DNA of 64,000 bases from a virus (lineage: Duplodnaviria; Heunggongvirae; Uroviricota; Caudoviricetes). Of the stretch, positions 1-51,882 are shown piece after piece. The stretch lies in IMG/VR virus record IMGVR_UViG_3300018432_000003, positions 19,394 through 83,393 of that record. One strand, written 5' to 3'. A program made the translations under genes and the position numbers. Within the stretch, counting starts at the first letter, position 1. Every line of letters starts with the position of its first letter. The notes under the pieces were generated by a model that was not told the origin of the DNA, made no database searches, and worked only from the letters and a program-made list of their open reading frames with translations.

Positions 1-47
1 TTAGTGCCTCGTCCTTTCGTCTGCTTTGCTGTCATATACTCTCCTAG

Positions 48-120
48 TAGACCACATAGGATTCGAACCTATACTGAGCGGTACTTAAAGCCGCTGCCTC
101 TGCCGTTGGGCTAGTGGTCC
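48..120 (-). tRNA. tRNA, anticodon UAA (Leu-like) but short variable arm; identity uncertain
   Basis: RC shows acceptor ggaccac/gtggtct, T-arm atagg-attcgaa-cctat, anticodon stem gcggt/gccgc around loop reading UUUAAGU on the - strand; C31.A39 mismatch. Confidence 0.6.
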
Positions 121-126
121 GAAAAG

Positions 127-209
127 TACCCACATTCGGAGTCGAACCGAAACGCACTAAGGGCACAGGGTTTTGAATCCTGCGTGTCTACCAATTCCAC
201 CATGCGGGC
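127..209 (-). tRNA. tRNA-Leu (CAA), type II
   Basis: T-arm ttcgg-agtcgaa-ccgaa, long variable region, anticodon loop UUCAAAA on - strand, 83 nt. Confidence 0.6.
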
Positions 210-220
210 ATATTGTGAAG

Positions 221-292
221 GGCGATGGACCGGACTCGAACCGGCACTTTAGCGGACACAACGCTAATTTCTGCCATTGAATTACCAACGCC
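221..292 (-). tRNA. tRNA-His (GUG)
   Basis: T-arm accgg-actcgaa-ccggc; anticodon stem tagcg/cgcta with loop UUGUGUC; extra 5' G(-1) opposite discriminator C as in His tRNAs. Confidence 0.65.
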
Positions 293-350
293 ATGATTGT
301 ACTTTGGGACGCGGGTACCGTTATAGCCACTGGACTTCTCCCAAAGTAAG

Positions 351-432
351 TACCGCCCACGAGAGTCGAACTCGTACGCCTGTGAAGCACTGACTCCTCA
401 AGCCAGCGTGTCTACCATTCCACCAGAGCGGC
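351..432 (-). tRNA. tRNA type II (long variable arm), anticodon tentatively GAG (Leu)
   Basis: T-arm acgag-agtcgaa-ctcgt, acceptor accgccc/gagcggc with G-U pairs, 82 nt; anticodon arm assignment ambiguous. Confidence 0.5.
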
Positions 433-483
433 ATATAGAGGTCAATAGCGGCGAAGGGGTTTCCTTAGCCGCCACTGCCCAAG

Positions 484-566
484 TACGAGTAGAGGGATTC
501 GAACCCACACGCCCGAAGGCACTGCGTTCTAAGCGCAGCCTGTCTACCAATTCCATGCATACTCGC
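484..566 (-). tRNA. tRNA-Leu (UAG), type II
   Basis: T-arm gaggg-attcgaa-cccac, variable hairpin gcc-cgaa-ggc, anticodon stem ctgcg/cgcag loop CUUAGAA on - strand. Confidence 0.65.
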
Positions 567-580
567 AAGTTGTGTAAAAG

Positions 581-669
581 CGGAGGTAGTAGGAGTCGAA
601 CCCACACGATGACACCTCTGCCACCATCACGGTTTTCAAGACCGATAAGCACGCCAATGCGTACCCCCG
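581..669 (-). tRNA. tRNA-Ser (UGA), type II
   Basis: T-arm gtagg-agtcgaa-cccac, 89 nt with long variable arm, anticodon loop CUUGAAA. Confidence 0.6.
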
Positions 670-673
670 TAAG

Positions 674-760
674 CGGAAAGCCTGGGACTTGAACCCAGAA
701 CGTGACGTTATGCACGCGCTTCCTTAGCAGGGAAGTTCCTCGTCCAGCCGGTCACTTTCC
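674..760 (-). tRNA. tRNA-Ser (GCU), type II
   Basis: T-arm ctggg-acttgaa-cccag, anticodon stem cttcc/ggaag loop CUGCUAA, 87 nt. Confidence 0.65.
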
Positions 761-874
761 ATATTGTCCAACGTGCCCCAACCAATCGCACGCCAGTTCG
801 GACGGCATAACGCGCCCTTACCATAATGTGCTGTGGAGCGAAGTCCACAGAGCGAGGGGGTTATGTTGTGTAAG

Positions 875-946
875 TGGGCCAGGAAGGATTCGAACCTACG
901 GCTTCCTCTTTGTAAGAGAGGCACTCTCCCGCTGAGTTACAAGCCC
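875..946 (-). tRNA. tRNA-Val (UAC)
   Basis: T-arm gaagg-attcgaa-cctac, anticodon stem cctct/agagg loop CUUACAA. Confidence 0.65.
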
Positions 947-954
947 ATTATAAG

Positions 955-1025
955 TACCGATACCCGGATTCGAACCGAGGCTACAACCTTGAGAGGGTTG
1001 CGTGCTACCGCTACACAATACCGGC
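955..1025 (-). tRNA. tRNA-Glu (CUC)
   Basis: T-arm cccgg-attcgaa-ccgag, anticodon stem caacc/ggttg loop CUCUCAA. Confidence 0.65.
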
Positions 1026-1031
1026 ATAAAG

Positions 1032-1102
1032 CTCCGGGCCGTGGAATCGAACCACGATTTCTGGATTCAGAGTCCAGCGTGCTGCCTTTACACCATCCCG
1101 AA
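1032..1102 (-). tRNA. tRNA-Gln (CUG)
   Basis: T-arm cgtgg-aatcgaa-ccacg, anticodon stem ctgga/tccag loop CUCUGAA; U1-A72 start as in Gln tRNAs. Confidence 0.65.
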
Positions 1103-1188
1103 ATAGATTGTTACCAACTGCGCTTTCCGAAGATACTCCAAGTGCGCTTAATCACCAGAATCTCCTTGTCATGTTGCCTCCTTTGTTG

Positions 1189-1262
1189 TGGACGTACTAG
1201 GACTCGAACCTAGGACTTCCTCTTTATGAGAGAGTTGCTCTAACCAACTGAACTATACGTCC
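1189..1262 (-). tRNA. tRNA with CAU anticodon (elongator Met or Ile-lysidine)
   Basis: Perfect acceptor ggacgta/tacgtcc, T-arm ctagg-actcgaa-cctag, anticodon loop CUCAUAA. Confidence 0.7.
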
Positions 1263-1267
1263 AAAAG

Positions 1268-1339
1268 AGACTCTAGTTGGATTCGAACCAACGTGTACGG
1301 GGTTGCAACCCGCTACCTCCACCACTCGGCCATAGAGTC
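1268..1339 (-). tRNA. tRNA-Cys (GCA)
   Basis: Perfect acceptor gactcta/tagagtc, T-arm gttgg-attcgaa-ccaac, anticodon loop UUGCAAC. Confidence 0.7.
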
Positions 1340-1351
1340 AATGAGATTATA

Positions 1352-1443
1352 CTTGGGGGCAGGGAATCGAACCGTGCCATTTGGAAGTAGCCTTCAACTA
1401 GAGGTTCCACGCATCCACGTTTTACCACTTAAACTACCCAAGT
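1352..1443 (-). tRNA. tRNA-like gene, type II length, anticodon not resolvable (possible aberrant or pseudo tRNA)
   Basis: T-arm caggg-aatcgaa-ccgtg and D-arm-like gttt-aagtggtaa-aaac present but acceptor stem has 2 mismatches and no clean anticodon stem found. Confidence 0.35.
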
Positions 1444-1538
1444 AAAATCATCTCGGATTTCCAGCCTCCAGGTCACCGAGGACTACGCCATGTAGCCATG
1501 CCTTGTTGTTTCATACCCTCGTGGTATGAACCCACCAG

Positions 1539-1612
1539 TCGGGAATGTTGGACTCGAACCAACGACCACTCGCATCCGAAGCGAGTACGCTACCAAACTG
1601 CGCCAATTCCCG
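1539..1612 (-). tRNA. tRNA-Pro (CGG)
   Basis: Perfect acceptor cgggaat/attcccg, T-arm gttgg-actcgaa-ccaac, anticodon stem ctcgc/gcgag loop UUCGGAU. Confidence 0.7.
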
Positions 1613-1646
1613 TTTGCGTGTTTTGGTGTGGTTGCACGCTCCACAG

Positions 1647-1720
1647 TTGGCGTGCTCGGACTCGAACCGAGAACCCCTGCGTTCCAAACGCAGCACTCTG
1701 ACCAATTGAGCTACACACCA
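1647..1720 (-). tRNA. tRNA-Pro (UGG)
   Basis: T-arm ctcgg-actcgaa-ccgag, anticodon stem ctgcg/cgcag loop UUUGGAA. Confidence 0.7.
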
Positions 1721-1729
1721 ATTGTAAAG

Positions 1730-1801
1730 TGGTTTCGGTAGGAATCGAACCTACGACACGATGGGCTTCAACCAACTGCTCTACCTCTGAGCTACGAAAC
1801 C
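1730..1801 (-). tRNA. tRNA-Phe (GAA)
   Basis: Perfect acceptor ggtttcg/cgaaacc, T-arm gtagg-aatcgaa-cctac, anticodon loop UUGAAGC (one stem mismatch). Confidence 0.6.
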
Positions 1802-1807
1802 ATGTTG

Positions 1808-1879
1808 CTCCCCGACTAGGATTCGAACCTAGGACATACGCATTAACAGTGCGCCGTTCTGCCGCTGAACTATCAGGGA
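1808..1879 (-). tRNA. tRNA-Asn (GUU)
   Basis: T-arm ctagg-attcgaa-cctag, anticodon stem acgca/tgcgc loop CUGUUAA, U1-A72. Confidence 0.65.
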
Positions 1880-1976
1880 ATGTTACCCGTTATCGCCCCC
1901 AACTGGTTTAGCCGATAGTGGGACTTCCGGCCTACGCAGCGGTCCCACAGGGCGTTGTAGCCACGGGTGGGGCTAG

Positions 1977-2058
1977 TGGATGCACTAGGATTCGAACCTA
2001 GGTAGCACATGGCAACAGGTTTACAGCCTGCCCTCGTTGTCCGCTTGAGTATACATCC
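1977..2058 (-). tRNA. tRNA-Tyr (GUA), type II
   Basis: T-arm ctagg-attcgaa-cctag, 82 nt with long variable arm, anticodon loop CUGUAAA. Confidence 0.65.
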
Positions 2059-2075
2059 ATATTGTATGCCCCAGA

Positions 2076-2117
2076 ACGCCAGTTCCAATGTTGGGAATCG
2101 AACCCGGAGCATATAGT
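2076..2117 (-). pseudogene. tRNA 3'-half remnant (acceptor 3' strand + T-arm only)
   Basis: ttggg-aatcgaa-cccgg T-arm-like motif but only ~40 nt before the next complete tRNA; no room for D/anticodon arms. Confidence 0.35.
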
Positions 2118-2191
2118 AATGACGGGTGGACTCGAACCACCGACGTACAGGATATGAGCCTGCTGTTCTGCCGACTGAACTACGCCATCAT
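2118..2191 (-). tRNA. tRNA with CAU anticodon (Met/Ile2-like; A1-U72, not initiator-like)
   Basis: Acceptor atgacgg/ccatcat, T-arm gtgg-actcgaa-ccac, anticodon stem acagg/cctgc loop CUCAUAU. Confidence 0.6.
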
Positions 2192-2196
2192 GTGAG

Positions 2197-2269
2197 CGGA
2201 AGTGACGAGAATCGAACTCGCTCTTGAACCGTGACAGGGTTCCGTGCAGGACCACCACACTACACCTCC
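2197..2269 (-). tRNA. tRNA-Asp (GUC)
   Basis: T-arm acgag-aatcgaa-ctcgc, anticodon stem gaacc/ggttc loop CUGUCAC, discriminator G. Confidence 0.7.
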
Positions 2270-2309
2270 GATGGGGCAGTTGTTTCAGGCACAGCTACCA
2301 AAGCCTCAT

Positions 2310-2378
2310 AGCGGGTTACAGAGTCGAACTGCAAACACGAGGACATGAACCTCGTATGTTACCTTTACACCAACCCGC
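2310..2378 (-). tRNA. tRNA with CAU anticodon (third CAU species: fMet/Met/Ile2 candidate)
   Basis: Perfect 7-bp acceptor gcgggtt/aacccgc, anticodon stem cgagg/cctcg loop UUCAUGU, weak T-stem. Confidence 0.55.
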
Positions 2379-2387
2379 ACGCTATAG

Positions 2388-2626
2388 TGGAACCGGCGGG
2401 GGTTGAACCCGCGTCTTGAATCGAATCATTGGGAGTAGTTCTTTGAGTGTTTCTATCCGTATTAGAGGGCTGCTACTAGTTCCCTTTCCTCTACGGTCAC
2501 AGTGTCAACGTCTGCGAGGAATGACTCAATCTCTGCCGCCAAGTCCTCAGCTTCCTGAGATACTACAATATCATTGCCGTGTGTTTGTTCTGCCCCTATC
2601 AATCCAATCGAAACCAGTACGGCCCC
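2388..2626 (-). ncRNA. ssrA: tmRNA (SsrA)-like RNA, compact ~239 nt; tag ORF at 2462-2536 (-) encoding AEIESFLADVDTVTVEERELVAAL
   Basis: The - strand 5' end GGGGCCGTACTGGTTTCGATTGG parallels E. coli ssrA GGGGCTGATTCTGGATTCGACGGG. The 3' end GACGCGGGTTCAACCCCCGCCGGTTCCA parallels GACGCGGGTTCAACTCCCGCCAGCTCCA. The 5' GGGGCCG pairs with 3' CGGTTCC and includes a G3.U70 wobble. An in-frame GCA resume codon lies ~90 nt from the 5' end and the ORF ends AAL-stop 45 nt before the T-arm. CCA is not encoded. Confidence 0.55.
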
Positions 2627-2915
2627 AAAAGGGTCGCCCCCGCTCCCCGAGAGAAGCGGGCACGATATAAGTTGGAAGGTGGGACTGTCATCCCACAACG
2701 AGAGGTAAAGCCTTGACATCGCAAGTCTGCTCTCGACCTCACACGCTCCCCGGTAAGGGTAACACAGTCTACTAACCCCTCGGCTTTCGGGCCTCACACG
2801 GTAATGTCCCGCTACATGGCACTCTTCTGCGTTGCACGTATGCGACATTATCCCCGACGCTTTACGGCAGGGATTTTTCTGCCACTTCCGGTAGCCAGCC
2901 GTCGCCAGCTACTAG

Positions 2916-2987
2916 TAGGACATGACGGATTCGAACCGACACCGGCCACCTTGAAAGGGTGGTGAGCTTCCGTTACTCCAATGTCCC
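2916..2987 (-). tRNA. tRNA-Glu (UUC)
   Basis: T-arm gacgg-attcgaa-ccgac, anticodon stem ccacc/ggtgg loop CUUUCAA. Confidence 0.65.
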
Positions 2988-3169
2988 AAGCGTACGTGGA
3001 GAGGGCGGGGCGGGTCGTCCACCCATCTTCTAATCCCACACGATTCCTAGCAGGACTCCACGTACAATCTTTATATACACTATCATTCAGTTGTCAATGT
3101 CCGTATAGCAGTTTCTCAACGCTATAATTACATTATACCACAGACTCGGCACTTTGTCAAGTCCGTCAG

Positions 3170-3237
3170 CACGGATGGTAGGAATCGAACCCACTTCCGC
3201 AGTTTTGGAGGCTGCGTAACCGCCTTGGCTCACCCGT
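3170..3237 (-). tRNA. tRNA-Trp (CCA), short D-region
   Basis: T-arm gtagg-aatcgaa-cccac, anticodon loop CUCCAAA with C31.A39 mismatch, acceptor acggatg/cacccgt. Confidence 0.5.
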
Positions 3238-3247
3238 ATATATCTTA

Positions 3248-3276
3248 ATTATACACCACATCGTGCAAGTTGTCAA
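3248..3276 (-). promoter_or_regulatory. sigma70-type promoter for the tRNA/tmRNA array (TTGACA-N17-TGTATAAT on - strand)
   Basis: RC of 3245-3280 reads gcacTTGACAacttgcacgatgtggtgTATAATtaa; predicted TSS ~3241, 4 nt upstream of tRNA-Trp 5' end. Confidence 0.6.
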
Positions 3277-3348
3277 GTGCTTCATGGGGTGTATAAAAAT
3301 TACCCCTCTACTTATAATGGAGACGATAGGTTCCGGGGGGTCCAAAAG

Positions 3349-3657
3349 TCAATCAGCAAAGTCGGGATTGTCTCCCCACATCTCCGCCCCGTACATATCA
3401 TCCACACTATTCTGCCACATCTTTCCTTTCTTCTGTCGCTCTCTGTGCCGTATGAGGAAGTTGGTTATCCCTCTCACTATATTATACCTCAGTTGGTCCT
3501 CATTGTCAACCTCTTTCTCCAAGGCGTTGATAAGACCCTCCTGCACGGCATCATCTATAACACTCATCTCCCCATTCTTACGGTCTATCCTACTCTCAGC
3601 TACAGTCCTAGCGTAAGGTATCAAGTCCAAGAGAAGGGCGTTCTTATCGCCATTCAC
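3349..3657 (-). CDS. hypothetical protein (102 aa)
   Basis: ORF in leftward operon, 14-nt overlap with upstream gene. Confidence 0.45.
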   Translation of the reverse strand: MNGDKNALLLDLIPYARTVAESRIDRKNGEMSVIDDAVQEGLINALEKEVDNEDQLRYNIVRGITNFLIRHRERQKKGKMWQNSVDDMYGAEMWGDNPDFAD

Positions 3658-4246
3658 TCGGCACCCTCTCCTTCACTATGGTTCGTATGCGCTTCTCACC
3701 GAAATCCTTCTCGTACTTGAGGAATAGGTTCCTGTGTGCATCTGCGGGTGCGATTCCACTTTCACGGTATCTAACAAACGCTGCTGCAACCTCATTGTAC
3801 TTGTCCTCCATCAGTGCTTCAGTGTGGGTTGTGTCTGCCACGGATGCACGACGAACGAAGATGTCCTCGTCGTTGATGAAGTCAGCCAGCCATGTTATCC
3901 CTTCATCTGCACACAGTAGGATGGTGTTCTTCGGGTTCTGCCGTCTAAGGAACTCCAAGTCACTGTGACCGGCTTCCGGGTGCATGAACACCGACAAGAT
4001 TCCATTATACCACTCTGGGTGCTCCCTGTCAAGTTCCGAGAGAGCGTACTCTAGTGTCGCGTAAGTCTCACCGATTACCGAGTTGCTGTCCATCCTAGCT
4101 TCCAACTCCGGGGTCATCGGCCAAGACTCTTCCGCACCGAAGTTGTCACCCGCTGGCACGTAGGCAGTCTGCGGCCCAGGTGGTAGGATGTTCATGTAAT
4201 CAGCAAGGAGCGTTGCTATATCCTTGCGTTTAATCTCGCTTGCCAT
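3644..4246 (-). CDS. hypothetical protein (200 aa), acidic
   Basis: First gene of leftward unit diverging from the 4247-4356 AT-rich promoter region. Confidence 0.5.
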   Translation of the reverse strand: MASEIKRKDIATLLADYMNILPPGPQTAYVPAGDNFGAEESWPMTPELEARMDSNSVIGETYATLEYALSELDREHPEWYNGILSVFMHPEAGHSDLEFLRRQNPKNTILLCADEGITWLADFINDEDIFVRRASVADTTHTEALMEDKYNEVAAAFVRYRESGIAPADAHRNLFLKYEKDFGEKRIRTIVKERVPSEWR

Positions 4247-4323
4247 CTAGTCTCCTGTTCTAAGGCGTGTAATTTATGACCATACTTACATTATAACACA
4301 CTAAGCATGTAATGTCAAGTCTC

Positions 4324-4352
4324 TTGACTTTTCGCAAGAGATGTGCTATAAT
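4324..4352 (+). promoter_or_regulatory. sigma70-type promoter TTGACT-N17-TGcTATAAT
   Basis: cTTGACTtttcgcaagagatgtgcTATAATg; 28 nt upstream of AGGAGG-ATG at 4381. Confidence 0.6.
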
Positions 4353-4380
4353 GTAAGTGTACCCTATAAACAGGAGGATA

Positions 4381-4746
4381 ATGAGTAAGAAGTCACGTAG
4401 AGCGGGACGGAGGAATCGCCCGAGTAGGGAAGAGCGTTTGCAGGCTAGGATTGAGGCAGGCGTCCCTCACGGAAGGCCGAAGGGTGGTAGCGTCCGTCAC
4501 AGGCTCCCAATGAACATGAACGAAGTGAGGCAGTTGCTCAGTGCGAAAGGCAAGCACAAGTATCTCCGACACCCTATCGGCGGTAAAGAGAATCGGTATT
4601 GGGATAAGCTATGGCAGTATAAAGGTCGTCCGTACAATAAGACACCTTATAAGGGCGACAGCAAGCGGCGTAAAATCCGTCAGGAGAGACAGAGCAAGTC
4701 GTGGAGGTTGAAGCGCGAGCGCAACAATCAGAAGAAGGTAGCGTGA
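4381..4746 (+). CDS. highly basic Arg/Lys-rich small protein (possible nucleic-acid binding)
   Basis: ATG at 4381 preceded by AGGAGGATA SD (ORF track starts at GTG 4357); about 30% R+K. Confidence 0.55.
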   Translation: MSKKSRRAGRRNRPSREERLQARIEAGVPHGRPKGGSVRHRLPMNMNEVRQLLSAKGKHKYLRHPIGGKENRYWDKLWQYKGRPYNKTPYKGDSKRRKIRQERQSKSWRLKRERNNQKKVA

Positions 4747-4752
4747 CCTATC

Positions 4753-5049
4753 ATGGTATGGATTGTATGTGGCGCGATGCTTATGTCGTCTTTATACCCA
4801 ATCCATCTGGCGGTGAACTATTTCCATTCACTATACACGTCAAGCAAAGGCCAATCAAATCAGGAGAGGTACCGGCACTATCGAGTCTCACTAGTTGCAC
4901 TCGGACAGCTTGTTCTGATAATGGGCCTTGCGATGTGTGCGTGGGGTGCAGCAAGCACGTACATACCGACCTCCGTGGTAGAAACTCGTTCGGCGGCAGA
5001 CTCGGATGGGAAAATCCCGGCGTATCCAGTCCATCCCATAGGTCCCTAG
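4753..5049 (+). CDS. hypothetical membrane protein (98 aa)
   Basis: ORF with two hydrophobic segments, start adjacent to upstream stop. Confidence 0.45.
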   Translation: MVWIVCGAMLMSSLYPIHLAVNYFHSLYTSSKGQSNQERYRHYRVSLVALGQLVLIMGLAMCAWGAASTYIPTSVVETRSAADSDGKIPAYPVHPIGP

Positions 5050-5894: not shown

Positions 5895-6317
5895 ATGCGT
5901 AGATGGTTGACGGAGAAGATACTGGAAGCTGGATACAGTATGGACAATAGGGCGCTGAGTTGGTTGGAAGAGAACAACGAAAGGACGTTATCGAAAATGG
6001 GTTATCACGACAAGAACTTCGGAGTGCCTGGGCCGATACTCGGTGAGGTACCTAGCGGTGAGGAAGGCAGTTACGCCTTGACGCAGAAAGACCCTGAGAT
6101 TGCCAAGGTTAAGAGAGTTGCTGCCAGTAACGTACTGTGGGCGTACGCCGAAGGGTATACTTCAGGAGCGGCTGACTGCGAGAATGCGAATGCCGATAAG
6201 TTGCAGGATTACCTGAGAGCCATAGCAATCAATAACCCTAGCTTGAAGTTCATGGAGTACGGTGCTGTTGAGGACCTGATACGTCAGCAGTTGTATCGGT
6301 GCTACCCTGAGAGTTGA
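5895..6317 (+). CDS. hypothetical protein (~140 aa)
   Basis: ATG at 5895 after GAGGG SD (track start 5868); AT-rich leader upstream. Confidence 0.5.
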   Translation: MRRWLTEKILEAGYSMDNRALSWLEENNERTLSKMGYHDKNFGVPGPILGEVPSGEEGSYALTQKDPEIAKVKRVAASNVLWAYAEGYTSGAADCENANADKLQDYLRAIAINNPSLKFMEYGAVEDLIRQQLYRCYPES

Positions 6318-6342
6318 CAACGACCCCGATATGTGGTATAAT
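6314..6342 (+). promoter_or_regulatory. sigma70-type promoter TTGACA-N17-TGgTATAAT
   Basis: gTTGACAacgaccccgatatgtggTATAATg. Confidence 0.6.
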
Positions 6343-8081: not shown

Positions 8082-8388
8082 TATACTTGCAGCGCACATG
8101 GTGGGAGACTATATTCTCCAAACGAACGAAGAGGCAGTTGGCAAGACGGATTCACTTGTTCTACTTGCGAAGCACGTGGGTAAGTACACCCTCGCGCATG
8201 CCGTTGTGGGAGTGGTCCACGGACGTTCTCTCAGAAGAGGCATTGTCTATACTCTATCCGTTGGAGCCGTACATGCCATCACGGACTCCCGTAGGTGGGC
8301 TTCAGGACGCGAATGGCCCCCGAAACCCATCCTCGTTGACCAAGCACTGCATGCGGTGCAACTCGCAGCACTCGGAAGGTTGCTGTGA
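8068..8388 (+). CDS. hypothetical protein (106 aa)
   Basis: ATG 8068 (MKGLDIL...) preferred over overlapping R/S/P-rich alternative frame 8078-8395. Confidence 0.4.
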   Translation: MKGLDILAAHMVGDYILQTNEEAVGKTDSLVLLAKHVGKYTLAHAVVGVVHGRSLRRGIVYTLSVGAVHAITDSRRWASGREWPPKPILVDQALHAVQLAALGRLL

Positions 8389-8645
8389 TTACTAACACAG
8401 TAGACATGCTGATGGCAGAACCCTTCAAGATGCCTAGGGAGTATGCCCAGACGTACGGATACTACATCGACCAGATTGAGGAACGTCACCGTAACGACAT
8501 CCGTCACGTGGAGGAAGAGAAGAAAGAAGCCGACAAGAAAGCCCTAGAGTGGGAGAGATTGTACGACAGATTACTTACCAAAGTTGTAGAGTTGAGAGTC
8601 GAGAATAAGGTACTACAGAAGGAGTTGGAACAGTATGGCAATTAA
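8385..8645 (+). CDS. hypothetical coiled-coil protein (86 aa)
   Basis: ORF, charged heptad-like C-terminus. Confidence 0.45.
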   Translation: MITNTVDMLMAEPFKMPREYAQTYGYYIDQIEERHRNDIRHVEEEKKEADKKALEWERLYDRLLTKVVELRVENKVLQKELEQYGN

Positions 8646-8946
8646 CATTGAGTTCAACGCAGAGCAGACTCAGAGACTAGTGGATGCAGTGGAGAATGCC
8701 GCCTACGCATACGTGTACGCCACTGGTTACATGGGTCATGCACAGCAACTCATGGAACTTGAGAACGCCAAGAAAGGCCAGAGTTCCTATGCACTCAACG
8801 CTAGGGTTGATGCCAACAGCGAAGCATTCGTTAAGGCAACCCTCAATACGATAAAACAGATTATACAGGACCCTGAGTTTGATGAACTGACCAACCAGCA
8901 CATCGCAAAGAAGTTGGACTTCCAGAGTGAGGCAGCGAAGCGATGA
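8635..8946 (+). CDS. hypothetical protein (103 aa)
   Basis: ORF. Confidence 0.45.
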   Translation: MAINIEFNAEQTQRLVDAVENAAYAYVYATGYMGHAQQLMELENAKKGQSSYALNARVDANSEAFVKATLNTIKQIIQDPEFDELTNQHIAKKLDFQSEAAKR

Positions 8947-9413: not shown

Positions 9414-9889
9414 TGCCTCTTTGAAAAAACCTGTGGAGAGGTAGAGCATTCGTTGTAGGTATCAGGAAAAACTTAATGGGGGTGGGTGTATAGAATGGAC
9501 CTAGCCTTTGACATACTATGCCTCCCCTTGGGCTTTTTTACCCCCCCTACCCTTACTCAAACCGGGATACCTAAGCCACTCTGAGCGATTATGCGAACGG
9601 TTCTTGATTCGGTTGGAAGTATGCAATATACGGTAACATAGGAATGGTCTTTTGCCATAGTATGCGAGTTGGCAGTTCACTAGCCTCACCCAGAGTAATG
9701 AAACCCCACGAAATCCGCATACCTAAGCAACATATAGTCATCACTTGAAAAACATATAGTATCAGCATAATCCTAGCGTGATATCACGTACTATATGAAA
9801 TTAAAGTTCGAGCCTCACTCAACACGATGAGGCTAGACTGCCAGCATCGGTTTCATCGGTATCAGTGAGGCTATCATAACATCGCCTAT

Positions 9890-11423: not shown

Positions 11424-11699
11424 GAGGCGGAGCTATGTCCAATGTCCTCAGTTGCAGTACTTGATTGGCGCGGCCTTCGTACCCGCGCAAGGCGGAGCTA
11501 TGCAACAAATTAAGCAAGCATGCAGTACCGTAGGTACTCCGAAAGGCGGCACGGAGGATAATCCGTCGCATCTTTACACGTAAGGCGTGCGCATTCGGTT
11601 GGATGCCGAAAACGGCCATGTTCAATCATGGTGGCGAACCCGTTCGACTCGGGTATGCGTACCTACGCGCTCGTGGGTGGTCCACGAGGCGGAGCTATG
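11424..11699 (+). repeat. three copies of AGGCGGAGCTATG each preceded by a GC-rich palindrome, in a ~65% GC island
   Basis: Copies at 11424-11437, 11489-11502, 11686-11699. Confidence 0.5.
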
Positions 11700-24677: not shown

Positions 24678-24976
24678 GAATAACGGTTCGGATACCAGCC
24701 GAGCCACGGTTTGCTGCGAGGACTCTGCGTTTCATCGTGGAGTCCTTCTCTTACATGTACGGTGGTTCTACCATCACAGAGGCGAGAGGCACGTGGCTTG
24801 ACAACAACTGTGAGATGGTATATAATCGAGTGTGGGTTGTAGAGGCGTACGAGAACTACAACAAGGACATCGGCATAGTCGGTTGGGAGGTCTACGAGTT
24901 AGCTGAGGAAGCAAAGACCATACTCGGTGAGGACACTATAATGTATACAATCAACGACAATGCATACTTTTCTTAG
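24656..24976 (+). CDS. hypothetical protein (106 aa)
   Basis: ORF. Confidence 0.4.
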   Translation: MGGERLVRITVRIPAEPRFAARTLRFIVESFSYMYGGSTITEARGTWLDNNCEMVYNRVWVVEAYENYNKDIGIVGWEVYELAEEAKTILGEDTIMYTINDNAYFS

Positions 24977-37893: not shown

Positions 37894-38766
37894 ATGGCTA
37901 CAAAGAACCTGATAATCTACGACGCTGACCCTGATGGATTCGGGTGTGCGTACGCTGCGTGGAAAGCCCTGCCTGACGGCGAGACTGACTTCATGGAGAT
38001 ACTCCACGGTTCGGATATACCTCCTGGGTGCTCAGCGTATGAGAACGTGTACATACTAGACCTGTCGTTCAGCAGGGATGAGATGGAGTCACTAGCCTCT
38101 TTCAGTAAGGTGACGGTCATAGACCACCACCCGAGTGCGAAGGAGGATGTAGAGAAGCTGAGGCTGAACCCCTTCCCCTTCAACACTGAGGAAGCCGCCT
38201 GCGTACAGTCCTGGGACTTCTTCCATCCGTACGAGCCTCGCCCTAAGATACTACAGTACGTTGGGGATAGGGACACGTGGACTTTCGAGTTGCCTGCGAG
38301 TGAAGCAATCAACCAGTACATCTACACTGTGGACCAGACGTTCCTTGAGTGGAGTTGTGCGAACGAGGTCATAGAAACACAGTGGGAGTATGCCATGTCG
38401 GTAGGGAATCGCCTGCTCAAGTACCGCGACAGGCTAGTGGACGAGATTGTAAAGGAAGCCACGACCCCAAACAACTGGCAGGGTGCGTACTCAATCTACG
38501 GCATACCGTTCGTGTCGGCACCAGTCCTCCACAGTGAAGTCGGCCACAGGTTGCTGGACGAACACCCGAATGCCCCCTTCGCAGTCACATTCTATGACGA
38601 GAAGGATAAAGGGACCCGCAAGTACAGTCTCCGTAGCGAGGACCATAGGGTTGATGTAGGGAAGTTCGCTTCAGAGAGGGGCGGTGGCGGTCACCACAAC
38701 GCCGCAGGATTCAGGAGGTCACTGGACGACATCTGGAAGGAAGGACATGCGGCAGTACGAGGATAA
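37894..38766 (+). CDS. DHH-DHHA1 phosphoesterase (NrnA/RecJ-like)
   Basis: IIYDADPDGFGC ... VIDHH ... GGGGHHNAAGF. Confidence 0.65.
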   Translation: MATKNLIIYDADPDGFGCAYAAWKALPDGETDFMEILHGSDIPPGCSAYENVYILDLSFSRDEMESLASFSKVTVIDHHPSAKEDVEKLRLNPFPFNTEEAACVQSWDFFHPYEPRPKILQYVGDRDTWTFELPASEAINQYIYTVDQTFLEWSCANEVIETQWEYAMSVGNRLLKYRDRLVDEIVKEATTPNNWQGAYSIYGIPFVSAPVLHSEVGHRLLDEHPNAPFAVTFYDEKDKGTRKYSLRSEDHRVDVGKFASERGGGGHHNAAGFRRSLDDIWKEGHAAVRG

Positions 38767-39073
38767 CGTAGGCGAGAGGGTCATTGCGGGTGATAACATT
38801 GTAGGCTTGCAGGACGGTCAGTGTACAGCATACAAGATGGACTGGCCGATGTACGAACAGAACCCTGTGTACATGTTCGTAGTGGAGGTACTCAGTACGG
38901 GTGAGCAGCATGCATTCACTCGCCCGTTCACCATATACTTCCGCAATGGATGGCCTAGCTTAGTGTGGGAGATTAGTAATGGACAACTAGTAGCCGTACC
39001 TATCACCAGGGCTGCACTGAAGCAGGCCGGTAGCGTGTGGCTTGTGGAGGAAGCTAATGAGAACGTCAACTAA
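38747..39073 (+). CDS. hypothetical protein (~108 aa)
   Basis: ATG 38747 (track 38684). Confidence 0.4.
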   Translation: MRQYEDNVGERVIAGDNIVGLQDGQCTAYKMDWPMYEQNPVYMFVVEVLSTGEQHAFTRPFTIYFRNGWPSLVWEISNGQLVAVPITRAALKQAGSVWLVEEANENVN

Positions 39074-39080
39074 CTTCAAG

Positions 39081-40472
39081 ATGACCCCGAGGTTATACAG
39101 CCTTGCGGGTGCCTTCGAGAGTAGGGGGTATGAGTTCTACTTCGTCGGTGGTTTCGTCAGGGACACACTGATGATAAGCTCTTCGAAGGATGTAGACGCC
39201 ACAACCAACGCACCCCCGAGCGAGATAAAGGCCATACTCCGACAGCACTTTGGGGATAGCCTCGACGCAATGTACACCGTAGGCGAGAAGTATGGTACCA
39301 TCGGTCTGAAGATTGGTGTCCTCGACGTTGAGATTACGACGTACAGGACTGAGCAGTATGAGGATGGGAGTCGAAAGCCGGAGGTTGCGTTCGGTAGTAG
39401 TCTCTATGAGGACCTGTCGCGTAGGGATTTCACCATCAATGCCATCGCATGCGATAAGGATGCAAACATAATCGACCCTTACGGCGGGTTGGATGATATA
39501 CAGGAAGGAGTTGTTCGCTTTGTCGGTAAGCCTTATGAGCGCATATTGGAGGACCCACTGCGCCTTCTACGGGCAGTTCGCTTTGCAGCCCGTTATGACT
39601 TCGCTCTACCTCAACTGTTTGCTATACGAGTCGATTCGTCCGCGCTCCTTGAAGTCTCGAAGGAGAGGATAAGGGACGAACTCTGCAAGATGCTGGTGGA
39701 CGAGAAGCCCTCACGTGCAATCCGCATGCTGAAGGAGGCTTGGCTGCTGAGGTACGTAACCCGTGAGGTTGACAGGCTTGACACTGTTGAGCAGATAAGC
39801 CCCTACCACTATGAGAACGCCTTCGACCACACCATGAGGGTCCTTGACGAGAGCTACCCTGAACTAGACCAGAGGCTTGCTGCACTACTGCACGATACTG
39901 GTAAGTTCGACACGATAGAGTACCACAACGACCCTGACGAACGCACCACGTTCTACGGGCATGAGGAAGCGTCTGCGAGGTTTGCACATCGCATGCTGCA
40001 CAGGCTCAGGTTCCCTCACGTGATAGTGAACAAGGTCACCCACATGGTGGCGTGTCACATGCGTCCACTCCAACTCTACAATGAACTGGATGCTGGTAAG
40101 ACCCCTTCCAACCGTGCAATCCGCAGATTCATCAAAGCATGTCAGGCAGACAACTGCACTGTGGAGGACGTGTTGGAGCTTAACTACGCTGACATGAAGG
40201 GCCATGCAGAGCCGAACATGGACAACTTCTATCAGCTTGAGCGTCTAGTCAAGACTGTACGCACCGACGACAACTTCCAGCCGGAGGAAGCAGACAGCCC
40301 GCTGGATGGTAACGAGTTGATGGAACTCTTCAACGGAAAGGCAGGCCCAGGACCGTGGATTGGAGCTACTAAGGCACACTTGACAAACCTCGTAGTTGAT
40401 GGTATAATAGAGGTAGACGATAAAGAAGGTGCCAAGAGGGAGGCCCTAGACTATTGGAATCGAAGAAAGTAA
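39081..40472 (+). CDS. cca: tRNA nucleotidyltransferase (CCA-adding enzyme) with C-terminal HD domain
   Basis: GGFVRD ... DVD ... RRDFTINAIA ... EDPLRLLRAVRFAARY head domain; LLHDTGK HD motif; track start 39042. Confidence 0.65.
   Translation: MTPRLYSLAGAFESRGYEFYFVGGFVRDTLMISSSKDVDATTNAPPSEIKAILRQHFGDSLDAMYTVGEKYGTIGLKIGVLDVEITTYRTEQYEDGSRKPEVAFGSSLYEDLSRRDFTINAIACDKDANIIDPYGGLDDIQEGVVRFVGKPYERILEDPLRLLRAVRFAARYDFALPQLFAIRVDSSALLEVSKERIRDELCKMLVDEKPSRAIRMLKEAWLLRYVTREVDRLDTVEQISPYHYENAFDHTMRVLDESYPELDQRLAALLHDTGKFDTIEYHNDPDERTTFYGHEEASARFAHRMLHRLRFPHVIVNKVTHMVACHMRPLQLYNELDAGKTPSNRAIRRFIKACQADNCTVEDVLELNYADMKGHAEPNMDNFYQLERLVKTVRTDDNFQPEEADSPLDGNELMELFNGKAGPGPWIGATKAHLTNLVVDGIIEVDDKEGAKREALDYWNRRK
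40380..40408 (+). promoter_or_regulatory. sigma70-type promoter TTGACA-N17-TGgTATAAT inside 3' end of cca
   Basis: cTTGACAaacctcgtagttgatggTATAATa. Confidence 0.5.
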
Positions 40473-42972: not shown

Positions 42973-43232
42973 TGTACGAGATGAACATAGTAGAGTTCAA
43001 CGACGGGGAGTGGGTCAACCTATACTGGATGGCCTACACCACAAGCCGCAGAGTTTTCGTGGAAGAGACTGGCGACAGTTACATAGACATCACATTCCAC
43101 TTCGCAGACGGTAGGGGTACGAAGTACCACACTAAGACTACCGACGAGGGTCTTGACATCATACGGGAGGCAATGTATAATGGAAGTGAGACACTGCCCG
43201 AGTTGCAGCAGCACGAAGCTGAGGAAGGCTAG
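42966..43232 (+). CDS. hypothetical protein (88 aa)
   Basis: ORF. Confidence 0.45.
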   Translation: MLVYEMNIVEFNDGEWVNLYWMAYTTSRRVFVEETGDSYIDITFHFADGRGTKYHTKTTDEGLDIIREAMYNGSETLPELQQHEAEEG

Positions 43233-47425: not shown

Positions 47426-48014
47426 GACGCTCTACATCGACATAGACTCCACGATATGGGCACCCGAGCCTGAGTATGACAAGGTGGAGTATGCGATGTA
47501 CGGCACCACTCGCTTGAGTAAGGAGTGGTTCGAGCCTGACGAGTTGGTGGAGATATACGGCCCTGACTTCAAGCAGATATTCTGGAAGGCCCTCGCGCCT
47601 GAGAAGGTTGCAGAGAGGGAGATGTTCCCACACGTCGGGGAGACTCTGGACCAACTGAACTTCATGGGGTACAACATCCACTTCCTGACCCACACCCACT
47701 TCCCTGACGAGATGCGTAAGCCTCTACATGCGTGGATAAGTGAATGTACGTTAGCACCCTTCGAGATAACCCCTACGGAGGAAGCGAACGACAAGATTGA
47801 CATAATTGCAGAGGACCCATCTGCGTGGGGGGTTATTGAGGATAGGGTGTCCACACTCACAAAGGCAGTGGAGGAAGGATACTACGCCTTCGGTAAGCGC
47901 ACCCACGTGAACGACGTGGACATCCCAGGTGTTCGTTGGTTCGACGATTGGAGGCTAATCCCTAGCAAAGTGAGGTTCGCTGAGGCGCAGGACGCATGGA
48001 GGGTACCGGCTTGA
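47412..48014 (+). CDS. HAD-superfamily hydrolase (putative nucleotidase/phosphatase)
   Basis: Motif I LYIDIDSTIW (DxDxT); TTG start after GGAGGA (track 47382). Confidence 0.45.
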   Translation: MSSNKTLYIDIDSTIWAPEPEYDKVEYAMYGTTRLSKEWFEPDELVEIYGPDFKQIFWKALAPEKVAEREMFPHVGETLDQLNFMGYNIHFLTHTHFPDEMRKPLHAWISECTLAPFEITPTEEANDKIDIIAEDPSAWGVIEDRVSTLTKAVEEGYYAFGKRTHVNDVDIPGVRWFDDWRLIPSKVRFAEAQDAWRVPA

Positions 48015-48039
48015 CATTGACGGCGGAACGTGGTATAAT
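48011..48039 (+). promoter_or_regulatory. sigma70-type promoter TTGACA-N17-TGgTATAAT
   Basis: cTTGACAttgacggcggaacgtggTATAATg. Confidence 0.55.
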
Positions 48040-51368: not shown

Positions 51369-51882
51369 CACTCCTTTGAGGCGTTGTTGCGGTGATGGCC
51401 CGTCCGGGACACCGCCTCACTTTACTGACCCTAAGAAGTTTAGCAAGGACAAGACTACTGGCAACAGGCGGGGTCAGTGTAAGGACTGCAACAAGATTGT
51501 GAACACACGGAGGAACCCTAGGACTAACGCAGACCCTAAGTATGACCCTGCGAGGGCTAGGGCGAGGGAACGTCGTCAACAGTTGGAGGAACGTGCGTGG
51601 ATTGAACCAGGGTGGAACAAACCGAAGTCACTAGCATTCTGGGGCAGGCGTTGTTACATCTGCGGACAGGAGATTGAGGGCCTGATACACTACGACCACG
51701 TTATACCAGTGACGAAAGGGGGAGAGTGGAGTGTAGCTAACGTGCGTCCAACACACGAGCCTTGCAACCTGTGGAAGAGTGACACACTGTTGCAGGATTT
51801 AGACTGGTCACAGGTGCCCTTGACAAGTGAACAGAAGTGTGGTATAATGTATATAGAAGGTCAGAAAACGGAGGGAGTTTGA
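51331..51882 (+). CDS. HNH endonuclease
   Basis: CYICGQ ... HYDHVIPVTKGGEWSVANVRPTHEPCNLWKSD; 38-nt overlap with dnaB 3' end. Confidence 0.65.
   Translation: MARCGSTMSTPSDTPLRRCCGDGPSGTPPHFTDPKKFSKDKTTGNRRGQCKDCNKIVNTRRNPRTNADPKYDPARARARERRQQLEERAWIEPGWNKPKSLAFWGRRCYICGQEIEGLIHYDHVIPVTKGGEWSVANVRPTHEPCNLWKSDTLLQDLDWSQVPLTSEQKCGIMYIEGQKTEGV
51820..51848 (+). promoter_or_regulatory. sigma70-type promoter TTGACA-N17-TGgTATAAT inside HNH gene 3' end
   Basis: cTTGACAagtgaacagaagtgtggTATAATg. Confidence 0.5.

Follow-up and report, generated by a model that had tools for sequence, protein, structure and literature searches.

A compact, pseudoknot-free tmRNA-like RNA inside the tRNA array of a large tailed phage

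Transfer-messenger RNA (tmRNA, encoded by ssrA) is the ribosome-rescue RNA of bacteria, and its E. coli copy is 363 nucleotides (nt) long. The stretch of 64,000 nt analysed here (the window), which belongs to the tailed-phage record IMGVR_UViG_3300018432_000003, carries a tmRNA-like RNA gene within an array of tRNA genes on its minus strand. The RNA occupies positions 2388-2626 and has 239 nt before the addition of CCA, with nt 1 at 2626 and the discriminator A at 2388; on the minus strand it starts at 2626 as GGGGCCGUACUGGUUUCGAUUGG and ends at 2388 as GACGCGGGUUCAACCCCCGCCGGUUCCA. A first-pass annotation, made from the letters of the window, had proposed a compact tmRNA at this place on account of its termini and an internal tag frame. 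What it stated about these ends is correct, and the tmRNA-like character of the locus is confirmed as real by the data given below. The elements of the RNA are listed here, with the helices named as in tmRNA.

2388-2626, minus strand: the whole mini-tmRNA, with a match to the Rfam tmRNA family RF00023 over 2385-2626, homologues of 221-240 nt in the contigs L012, L014, L080 and L021, and an identical copy in L081
2620-2626, minus strand: 5' strand of the acceptor stem P1, GGGGCCG, which holds G3; 7/7 paired in five homologues
2389-2395, minus strand: 3' strand of P1, CGGUUCC, pairing with 2620-2626 and followed by the discriminator A2388
2610-2619, minus strand: D-loop analogue UACUGGUUUC, within the conserved CUGGUUUCGA motif; matches the Rfam consensus ucuGGaUUCGA
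2599-2609, minus strand: 5' strand of helix P2a, GAUUGGAUUGA, a tandem G.A/A.G followed by 9 base pairs (bp); pairs with 2414-2424
2414-2424, minus strand: 3' strand of P2a, UCGAUUCAAGA, from the Rfam alignment and pair counts
2593-2596, minus strand: 5' strand of helix P2b, GGGG, pairing with UCCC at 2431-2434
2431-2434, minus strand: 3' strand of P2b, UCCC, 4 bp
2545-2560, minus strand: simple hairpin UCUCAG-GAAG-CUGAGG at the place of the first pseudoknot (PK1); 5 nt separate its end from the proposed resume codon
2462-2539, minus strand: tag frame of 25 codons, AAEIESFLADVDTVTVEERELVAAL, with the proposed resume codon GCG at 2539-2537 and the stop UAA at 2464-2462
2457-2496, minus strand: helix 5, enclosing the end of the tag and the stop codon, composed of H5a (CCGUA/UACGG, 2496-2492/2461-2457) and H5b (GAGG/CCUC, 2491-2488/2468-2465)
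2437-2456, minus strand: A-rich single-stranded linker of about 20 nt at the usual place of pseudoknots 2 to 4 (PK2-4), from the spacing in close homologues
2396-2412, minus strand: T-arm with stem GCGGG/CCCGC and loop UUCAACC; matches the Rfam consensus
2380-2387, minus strand: 3' trailer of 8 nt, CUAUAGCG, the spacer between the tmRNA and tRNA-Met (2309-2379)

The comparative analysis used five distinct full-length sequences of 221-240 nt. Four of them, from the window, L012, L014 and L080, form a close clade, and the fifth, from L021, is distant; the L021 homologue has 221 nt, lies at 8139-8359 and is unannotated. Throughout the region, the sequence of the window recurs unchanged in L081, which stems from an independent sample; L017 has part of the RNA. 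The syntenic homologue was found in the tRNA arrays of related, uncultured phages on four contigs, and the contigs of the relatives keep the order tRNA-Trp, tRNA-Glu(UUC), a manA-like element where present, the tmRNA, tRNA-Met, tRNA-Asp and onward. Metagenome assemblies contain relatives, 41-100% identical, of a 200-amino-acid (aa) protein encoded at 3644-4246, upstream of the array; in relatives that keep the order of the array this flanking protein is 41-86% identical.

A profile search with the tag-frame peptides among 5.8 billion proteins returned two matches, from which L080 and L081 were obtained; as both are gene calls on this same RNA, the peptide of the tag frame does not constitute a protein family. 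IMG/VR was scanned for the 21-mer of the T-arm, for the 19-mer of the 5' end and for a pattern of the conserved tag end. No family members came up, and the matches obtained were rejected as an ordinary tRNA, a host tmRNA at a prophage border, full-size tmRNAs and chance matches in protein genes. The 11 matches of a scan for the tag end plus the 3' acceptor in JGI metagenomes (a set without the source contig) were all chance matches in coding regions. A search for related loci with the CCA-adding enzyme of the window as query found nothing, and the locus and 20 kb of the window gave no nucleotide match in the GenBank phages (50,697 records).

RF00023 matched 2385-2626 of the minus strand with 47.4 bits (E = 1.1e-15 for the whole 64-kb window). 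The gathering threshold of this family is 47 bits; the window passes it marginally, and L014 (51.0 bits) and L012 (56.1 bits) pass it as well, with E values from 1e-15 to 1e-19, while the L021 homologue was not detected by RF00023 at E <= 0.01. In the window the alignment consists of P1, the D-loop analogue CUGGUUUCGA, P2 and the T-arm, with 172 interior nt skipped, and from the window alone it is only the tRNA-like domain that carries the assignment to tmRNA. The 19-mer at the 5' end is identical to that of genuine tmRNAs of 350-420 nt on viral contigs, and the match to tmRNA goes far beyond chance.

The helices were defined and their pairs counted by script in each of the five sequences separately, since a MAFFT alignment puts the 3' strand of helix 5 one column off. 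Every pair of P1, P2a, P2b, helix 5 and the T-stem is a standard one in all five sequences, apart from the tandem G.A/A.G of P2a, and double compensatory changes occur at two positions of P1, three of P2a, three of H5a and four of the T-stem. The 7-bp acceptor with G3.U70, as claimed in the first-pass annotation, is formed by GGGGCCG (2626-2620) and CGGUUCC (2395-2389), and it is completely paired, with compensatory changes, across the five homologues. G3.U70 is unchanged in five of five sequences and the window also has G4.U69, position 4 being G.U, C-G or A-U and position 6 C-G or U-A among the homologues. The element GGUUUCGA is constant across the close clade, and the RNA has neither a D-stem nor an anticodon arm. 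In P2a the double changes are U-A/C-G, U-A/G-C and G-C/U-A, and the Rfam register of P2 was chosen because it is the only one supported by this covariation; the register of the minimum-free-energy fold, which lacks such support, was rejected. The opening of P2 by G.A/A.G beside the UUCGA and GAC motifs, which is the SmpB-binding region of tmRNA, is present. The fourth pair of P2b is G-U in the window and A-U in the relatives, and L021 has CGAG/CUCG at this place. H5a reads CCGUA/UACGG in the window against CCUAU/GUAGG in the relatives, a difference of three double changes, and a 7-bp equivalent is found in L021. The T-stem has compensatory changes at 4/5 positions across the homologues. The T-arm of L021 (8335-8351) has a 5-bp T-stem, and its T-loop is GGCGGUG rather than UUCRANY, so that the U54-A58-type signature is absent, while the acceptor stem, P2, helix 5 and the tag of this homologue are intact. 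The non-canonical T-loop probably explains why L021 was missed by the Rfam model.

The RNA is free of pseudoknots, with a hairpin in the position of PK1 and a linker of 20 nt in that of PK2-4. The 6-bp hairpin at 2560-2545 lies between P2b and the tag and is constant in the four close homologues, and L021 has a different, 5-bp hairpin at the place of PK1. An explicit search of the PK1 region for H-type pseudoknots with both stems of at least 4 bp found none that is conserved among the homologues, while the same search recovered the classical PK1 in the tmRNA of Streptomyces phage Stanimal, used as positive control. A weak PK1 candidate (CGGC/GCUG with CAGG/CUUG) was rejected: L012 has lost it, and its formation would compete with that of the strong hairpin. 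The distance from the stop codon to the 3' strand of P2b is only 25-27 nt in all close homologues, which means that PK2-4 cannot exist. The first-pass annotation had called the molecule minimal for want of PK2-4, which is right as to the missing room and the 239 nt, but understated, as PK1 is missing too; the roughly 45 nt that it gave between stop and T-arm measure 49 nt to the T-stem (2412).

In all five sequences the interior can be read without interruption in one frame only, the other two being full of stops. It is 24-25 codons long in the close clade and 17 in L021, and no conserved start codon or properly spaced Shine-Dalgarno (SD) sequence was found in the five homologues; a TTG at nt 85 is CTC in L012. 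The tag had been proposed to open at the GCA of 2536-2534, and the corresponding frame, GCA GAG AUU ... GCC CUC UAA, is indeed present. However, this codon is AGU in L012, while the codon before it, 2539-2537, reads GCG throughout the close clade and GCA in L021. Because GCG or GCA is found here in all five sequences while the downstream GCA changes to AGU, GCG 2539-2537 is the better candidate, and the resume codon is more likely this one, at nt 88. In E. coli tmRNA the resume codon is at nt 90.

The tag of L021 is ANETTGTRTAERELVAA, and its opening ANE... resembles the classical AND/ANE tags. The tags of L014 and L012 are separated by three synonymous and two conservative (A/S) codon changes, and the three replacements that set the tag of the window apart from its relatives fall at the compensatory changes of helix 5. 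The last six codons are GAA CUA GUA GCA GCC UAA in the close clade and GAA CUG GUA GCU GCU UAG in L021, with synonymous differences only (CUA/CUG, GCA/GCU, GCC/GCU and the stops UAA/UAG). The relatives end in ...ELVAA*, while the window and the identical L081 end in ...ELVAAL* through an extra CTC. The AAL ending pointed out earlier is therefore true here and reproduced in two independent samples, but it is peculiar to this phage.

CCA is not templated, in agreement with the earlier annotation: the bases after the discriminator A2388 are CUA (an A-C-U-A context). ARAGORN finds 21 tRNAs on the minus strand between 47 and 2987, and CCA is encoded in 0/21 of them. A C follows directly after the discriminator in 20/21, mostly with T-rich sequence behind it, and the context of the tmRNA is alike, which fits a uniform route of 3'-processing and CCA addition. 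From the 8-nt trailer we infer co-transcription with the tRNAs and end processing of tRNA type. The surrounding features that bear on such a route are these.

2915-2987, minus strand: tRNA-Glu(UUC), the neighbour on the upstream side, kept in every related array (ARAGORN)
3160-3132, 3276-3248, 3509-3481, 4032-4004 and 4318-4290, minus strand: five perfect TTGACA-N17-TATAAT promoters facing the array, from a pattern count against shuffled sequence
39042-40472, plus strand: CCA-adding-type tRNA nucleotidyltransferase of 476 aa, with the Pfam domains PolyA_pol, PolyA_pol_RNAbd and HD

Perfect promoters of this pattern number 11 in the window against 0 expected in shuffles, and most have a TG-extended -10 element. 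The five on the minus strand lie one behind another within 1.2 kb (3132-4318), immediately upstream of the tRNA/tmRNA array, and the other six are on the plus strand (6314-6342, 24798-24826, 40380-40408, 43153-43181, 48011-48039 and 51820-51848). No terminator-like sites were predicted in 1-5000. The open reading frame (ORF) 39042-40472 matches TIGR02692 (tRNA_CCA_actino) end to end with 279 bits, under the equivalog cutoff of 439 bits; the encoded CCA-adding enzyme that had been proposed earlier thus holds at the family level, by its Pfam domains, and falls short of the equivalog assignment. Its product is a candidate for the enzyme that adds CCA to the tRNAs and the tmRNA. A search with a query verified as SmpB found no SmpB homologue in the window, L012 or L021, and host SmpB would therefore be required. 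The window also encodes a class II ribonucleotide reductase (RNR), PolA, DnaB, a primase-polymerase, a GH25 lysin and other phage-type genes. The RNR is closest to actinophage proteins, at <= 46% identity, and the host of the phage is probably an actinobacterium. Actinomycetia phage DSL-LC01, the closest relative at the protein level by its RNR, was dropped as comparator because no tRNA or tmRNA features were present in the 49 kb inspected.

In several respects the RNA agrees with the standard one-piece tmRNA of RF00023, namely the 7-bp acceptor with G3.U70, the CUGGNUUCGA D-loop analogue, the tandem G.A/A.G opening a long P2, the T-arm of GAC-N5-UUCRANY-N5 type, a frame without start codon near nt 88-90 and a stop in helix 5. 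It differs in its 239 nt against about 350, in the 6-bp hairpin for PK1 and the 20-nt linker for PK2-4, in an acidic tag of 24-25 residues that ends in LVAA in the relatives and VAAL here, where the most frequent tag length is 10 (PMC11915505), and in having no A-rich pre-resume motif, an untemplated CCA and a phage without smpB in the available sequence as its source. Among tmRNAs at large, PK1 is near-universal though not strictly defining, PK2-4 are typical but variable, and a hydrophobic tag end of the type ...[LV]AA-COOH, a protease degron, is usual without being universal. Phage ssrA genes are documented in Bxz1-like mycobacteriophages, in Wildcat, in Bacillus phage G and, as a gene for the tRNA-like domain (TLD) only, in mycobacteriophage DS6A (PMC4131195, PMC11915505), and tmRNA is routinely annotated in the Streptomyces phages of cluster BE, e.g. 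Amabiko, which have ~131 kb, ~50% GC and 45 tRNAs (PMC11237712). The occurrence of tmRNAs within the tRNA arrays of phages is likewise established (PMC4131195, PMC11237712). The tmRNA of Stanimal (OP021680.1, 97493-97771) has 279 nt, scores 92.7 bits against RF00023 and carries PK1 and the tag ANSNVASAYALAA. It shares with the RNA of the window a large actinophage-type genome of ~50% GC with dozens of tRNAs, compactness and a CCA that is not encoded; unlike the present RNA it keeps PK1 and further downstream structure as well as a canonical tag, and is surrounded by protein genes, not by tRNAs. Outside the T-arm the two have no nucleotide similarity.

A motif-spacing scan of IMG/VR found three unrelated compact viral tmRNAs of 242-253 nt (L096 ~245, L097 253 and L098 ~243). 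They are viral and essentially of the same length as the RNA of the window, but score 111-125 bits against RF00023, and by eye they keep a PK1-like sequence upstream of a AAUAAAUGCA-type resume context; two of them have short canonical tags according to ARAGORN (ANKNQFALAA and ANDNVAISLAA). L099, L100 and L101, from a scan with short spacing, were rejected as pairs of tRNA-like pieces that are not tmRNAs. As viral tmRNAs of 242-279 nt are known, small size alone is not new. Plastid tmRNAs have few or no pseudoknots, and PK2-4 of the E. coli molecule are dispensable in vitro (PMC3985003). The plastid RNAs and that of Oenococcus oeni, which lacks helix 4 of PK1, are similar to the present RNA in the loss of pseudoknots with retention of the tRNA-like domain and the tag frame (PMC3985003, PMC1168896), but they are organellar or cellular and have a cognate SmpB, whereas the RNA of the window is viral and lies in a tRNA array. 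The shortest ORF-bearing tmRNA in a census of 2005 had 250 nt (PMC1168896), compared to 221-240 nt in this family. Phage-encoded, compact and pseudoknot-poor tmRNAs are thus all documented, and the RNA of the window is an extreme variant and no new category; what is distinctive is the combination of no pseudoknots, an acidic tag of 24-25 residues, a pre-resume context that is not A-rich and a site inside a phage tRNA array.

Some further tmRNAs were noted in known phages. Mycobacterium phage MrMagoo (NC_053515.1, L095) has an unannotated tmRNA of 344 nt at 1501-1844, between tRNA-Trp and tRNA-Asn, with 101.5 bits against RF00023, and 600 nt downstream of it, at 2444-2861, an unannotated GOLLD RNA (RF02032, 182.4 bits). 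Matches of the MrMagoo tmRNA type are also present in Estes, GardenSalsa and SlimJimmy.

We consider it likely that the RNA is a working, maximally reduced one-piece tmRNA (ssrA) of a large tailed phage. The match to tmRNA in sequence and structure, the synteny, the covariation, the conserved open frame, the lack of pseudoknots and the untemplated CCA are observed, and the first-pass proposal of a compact tmRNA is backed by the syntenic homologues, the compensatory changes, the single open frame and the missing room for PK2-4. Expression, processing, charging, dependence on SmpB, the precise codon of resumption and what becomes of tagged proteins are read from the sequence, along the following lines. 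The RNA would be co-transcribed with the roughly 21-gene tRNA array from the strong host-type promoters, and its ends would be matured by enzymes acting on tRNA, RNase P at the 5' end and an endo- or exonuclease at the 3' end. As CCA is not templated, a step of CCA addition would be needed, carried out by the phage or the host CCA-adding enzyme. The host alanyl-tRNA synthetase (AlaRS) would charge the RNA with alanine by way of G3.U70, and host SmpB and EF-Tu would bring it to ribosomes stalled on broken mRNAs. Translation would then resume on the internal frame, probably at GCG 2539-2537, and append a tag of about 25 acidic residues, before termination at the UAA in helix 5 frees the ribosome.

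Several observations weigh against this reading. The Rfam score of the window is 0.4 bits over the cutoff and is contributed solely by the tRNA-like domain. ARAGORN makes no tmRNA call for the copies of the window, L014 and L080 (3/4 of the close copies), calling only the L012 homologue a tmRNA. The minimum-free-energy fold is not more stable than that of shuffled sequence (z = +0.3). The comparative set is small, with five distinct sequences of which four are close, the interior hairpin is invariant and hence carries no covariation evidence, and the T-loop of L021 (GGCGGUG) is non-canonical. PK1, which is regarded as the most important pseudoknot in E. coli tmRNA, is missing. The stretch before the proposed resume codon is not well conserved, being ACUUG in both the window and L021 but CGCUC in L012, and it does not resemble the A-rich context of E. 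coli or Stanimal, which leaves the selection of the frame unexplained. Finally, the tag of the window ends in AAL and not in AA, and may not be a protease degron.

The last point leads to a variant that we regard as unlikely, in which a pseudoknot-free tmRNA is active with host SmpB and its long acidic tag (...VAAL here) is no degradation signal. In that case the phage could rescue ribosomes and outcompete the host tmRNA while sparing the products from ClpXP, or could give tagged proteins another fate. The tmRNA, the tRNA array and the CCA-adding enzyme would then jointly make up a phage 'translation repair kit' against RNA-cleaving defences of the host.

It is also conceivable, though quite unlikely in our judgement, that the RNA does no tagging and serves as a decoy or inhibitor of host trans-translation, whose tRNA-like domain titrates SmpB and perhaps AlaRS and EF-Tu, as proposed for DS6A. 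The canonical resemblance is confined to the SmpB- and AlaRS-binding tRNA-like domain with P2, PK1 and the usual A-rich pre-resume sequence are absent, no SmpB was found encoded in the window, and DS6A with its TLD-only inhibitor provides a precedent (PMC4131195, PMC11915505) for a phage-encoded, drastically reduced RNA that depends on host factors. A reading frame would however be superfluous for a pure decoy, yet the frame, helix 5 and the ELVAA-stop end are conserved even in L021, with synonymous and compensatory changes. The DS6A RNA is described as little beyond the tRNA-like domain, with no coding sequence for a tag, whereas the RNA of the window keeps helix 5, about 170 interior nt and a conserved tag frame of 24-25 codons (17 in L021).

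The same conservation bears on the view that the RNA is a decaying relic of a host-derived or ancestral phage tmRNA, kept merely through its position in the tRNA transcription unit. The marginal Rfam score, the loss of every pseudoknot, the altered degron end in the window (AAL), the aberrant T-loop of L021 and a fold that is not unusually stable would all be in line with decay. Neutral decay would, on the other hand, bring unpaired changes, stops and indels, while the length (221-240 nt) and position have been kept as the flanking protein diverged to 41% identity, compensatory substitutions have preserved all the helices and none of the five sequences has a broken frame. We therefore hold a relic to be very unlikely.

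Highly improbable is an ordinary small protein gene, either a 45-aa ORF from a TTG in P2 or a 128-aa ORF at 2462-2848, with tRNA-like ends that are coincidental or those of a degenerate tRNA. Gene callers did predict such ORFs (L012 11685-11822, P0012 and P0013), the window has a 128-codon ORF starting with ATG in the same frame, and two upstream differences among the close homologues (GAU/GAC and AUU/AUA) are synonymous in that frame. The 128-aa ORF is nevertheless closed by a TGA inside P2 in L012, L014 and L080 and overlaps the structured manA-like RNA, and was rejected as a gene and taken as a chance extension; the TTG, at nt 25, has no SD sequence and lies inside a covarying helix. L021 shows no peptide similarity upstream of the proposed resume codon, the profile search gave no protein homologues beyond the two calls on the RNA itself, and the tRNA-like ends, which covary, have a tmRNA match of E 1e-15. 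A tRNA-Ala-like gene split by an intron or another insertion, or else a two-piece (permuted) tmRNA, is barely credible: the G3.U70 acceptor and canonical T-arm with about 200 nt between them and a weak, partial tmRNA_permuted match (18 bits, E 0.14) would suit it, but the RNA lacks both an anticodon arm and a D-stem, it is called by neither ARAGORN nor the tRNA model of Rfam, no group I intron or other family was matched in 2380-2920 at E <= 1, the acceptor halves are in standard order, and the permuted models (RF04321 and the clade models) score far below the threshold of 47 bits.

Were it active, the family of 221-240 nt would represent a natural minimal tmRNA, consisting of the tRNA-like domain, P2, one hairpin, the tag frame and helix 5, and would show that all four pseudoknots, PK1 included, can be dispensed with in vivo. 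It would also supply structural and engineering studies of trans-translation with a compact scaffold. Such genes are overlooked by standard annotation, as ARAGORN and Rfam operate near their limit and gene callers emit spurious 'proteins' of 45-128 aa. The locus is also one more instance of tRNAs, tmRNA and a CCA-adding enzyme occurring jointly in large actinophage-like genomes.

A number of neighbouring elements were observed in addition. Between tRNA-Glu and the tmRNA, at 2669-2910 on the minus strand, lies an RNA similar to the manA motif (RF01745, 43.9 bits), with counterparts in L021 (7873-8130), L017 (1512-1750), L018 (1437-1682) and L022 (2103-2353) at 37.6-49.9 bits. These matches are below the gathering score of 55.2, yet have E values of 1e-6 to 1e-10; the element is syntenic in five loci, and L012 lacks it. 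Lying as it does within a tRNA/tmRNA array, it is more suggestive of a processed stable RNA than of a regulator in a 5' untranslated region. A conserved GC-rich hairpin at 2630-2665 (minus strand, CCCGCUUCUC...GGGGAGCGGG), between the manA-like element and the 5' end of the tmRNA, recurs with covarying bases in L080 and L017. The GGCGACCCUUUU that comes after it rules out a classical terminator; the hairpin may mark where the manA-like module ends on its 3' side, or may be a signal for processing.

Next after the tmRNA, tRNA-Met(CAU) at 2309-2379 (minus strand) has, by eye, an apparent U1.U72 mismatch atop its acceptor stem. The array has three CAU tRNAs (2309-2379, 1188-1262 and 2116-2189), which could be of the initiator, elongator and tRNA-Ile2 types. 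The arrays of L012 and L014 contain an NlpC/P60 peptidase gene, and those of L012, L014 and L021 a sulfatase gene of 478-496 aa (array-embedded genes at L012 13020-15314, L014 2542-4748 and L021 10045-11535), while the window, without either insert, has about 200 nt between tRNA-Pro and tRNA-Cys. Directly downstream of the tmRNA homologue of L021, at 8396-8812, is an ORF of 138 aa that looks by eye like an HNH endonuclease (CxxC ... EHIEPW ...).

Elsewhere in the window, a 290-aa ORF at 37894-38766 (plus strand), between the RNR and the CCA-adding enzyme, has weak matches to DHH/DHHA1 phosphoesterases, below the Pfam cutoffs, and could be an NrnA/RecJ-like nuclease adjoining an RNA-repair gene. 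The 'tRNA-???' reported by ARAGORN at 11588-11663 (plus strand), with an anticodon of 2 nt, has no Rfam support, overlaps ORFs on both strands and is probably a false positive. In an unrelated IMG/VR contig of 134 kb (L001), matches to the Y RNA-like YrlA with 41 and 31 bits (cutoff 69) lie among tRNA genes, at 9679-9793 and 2858-2967.

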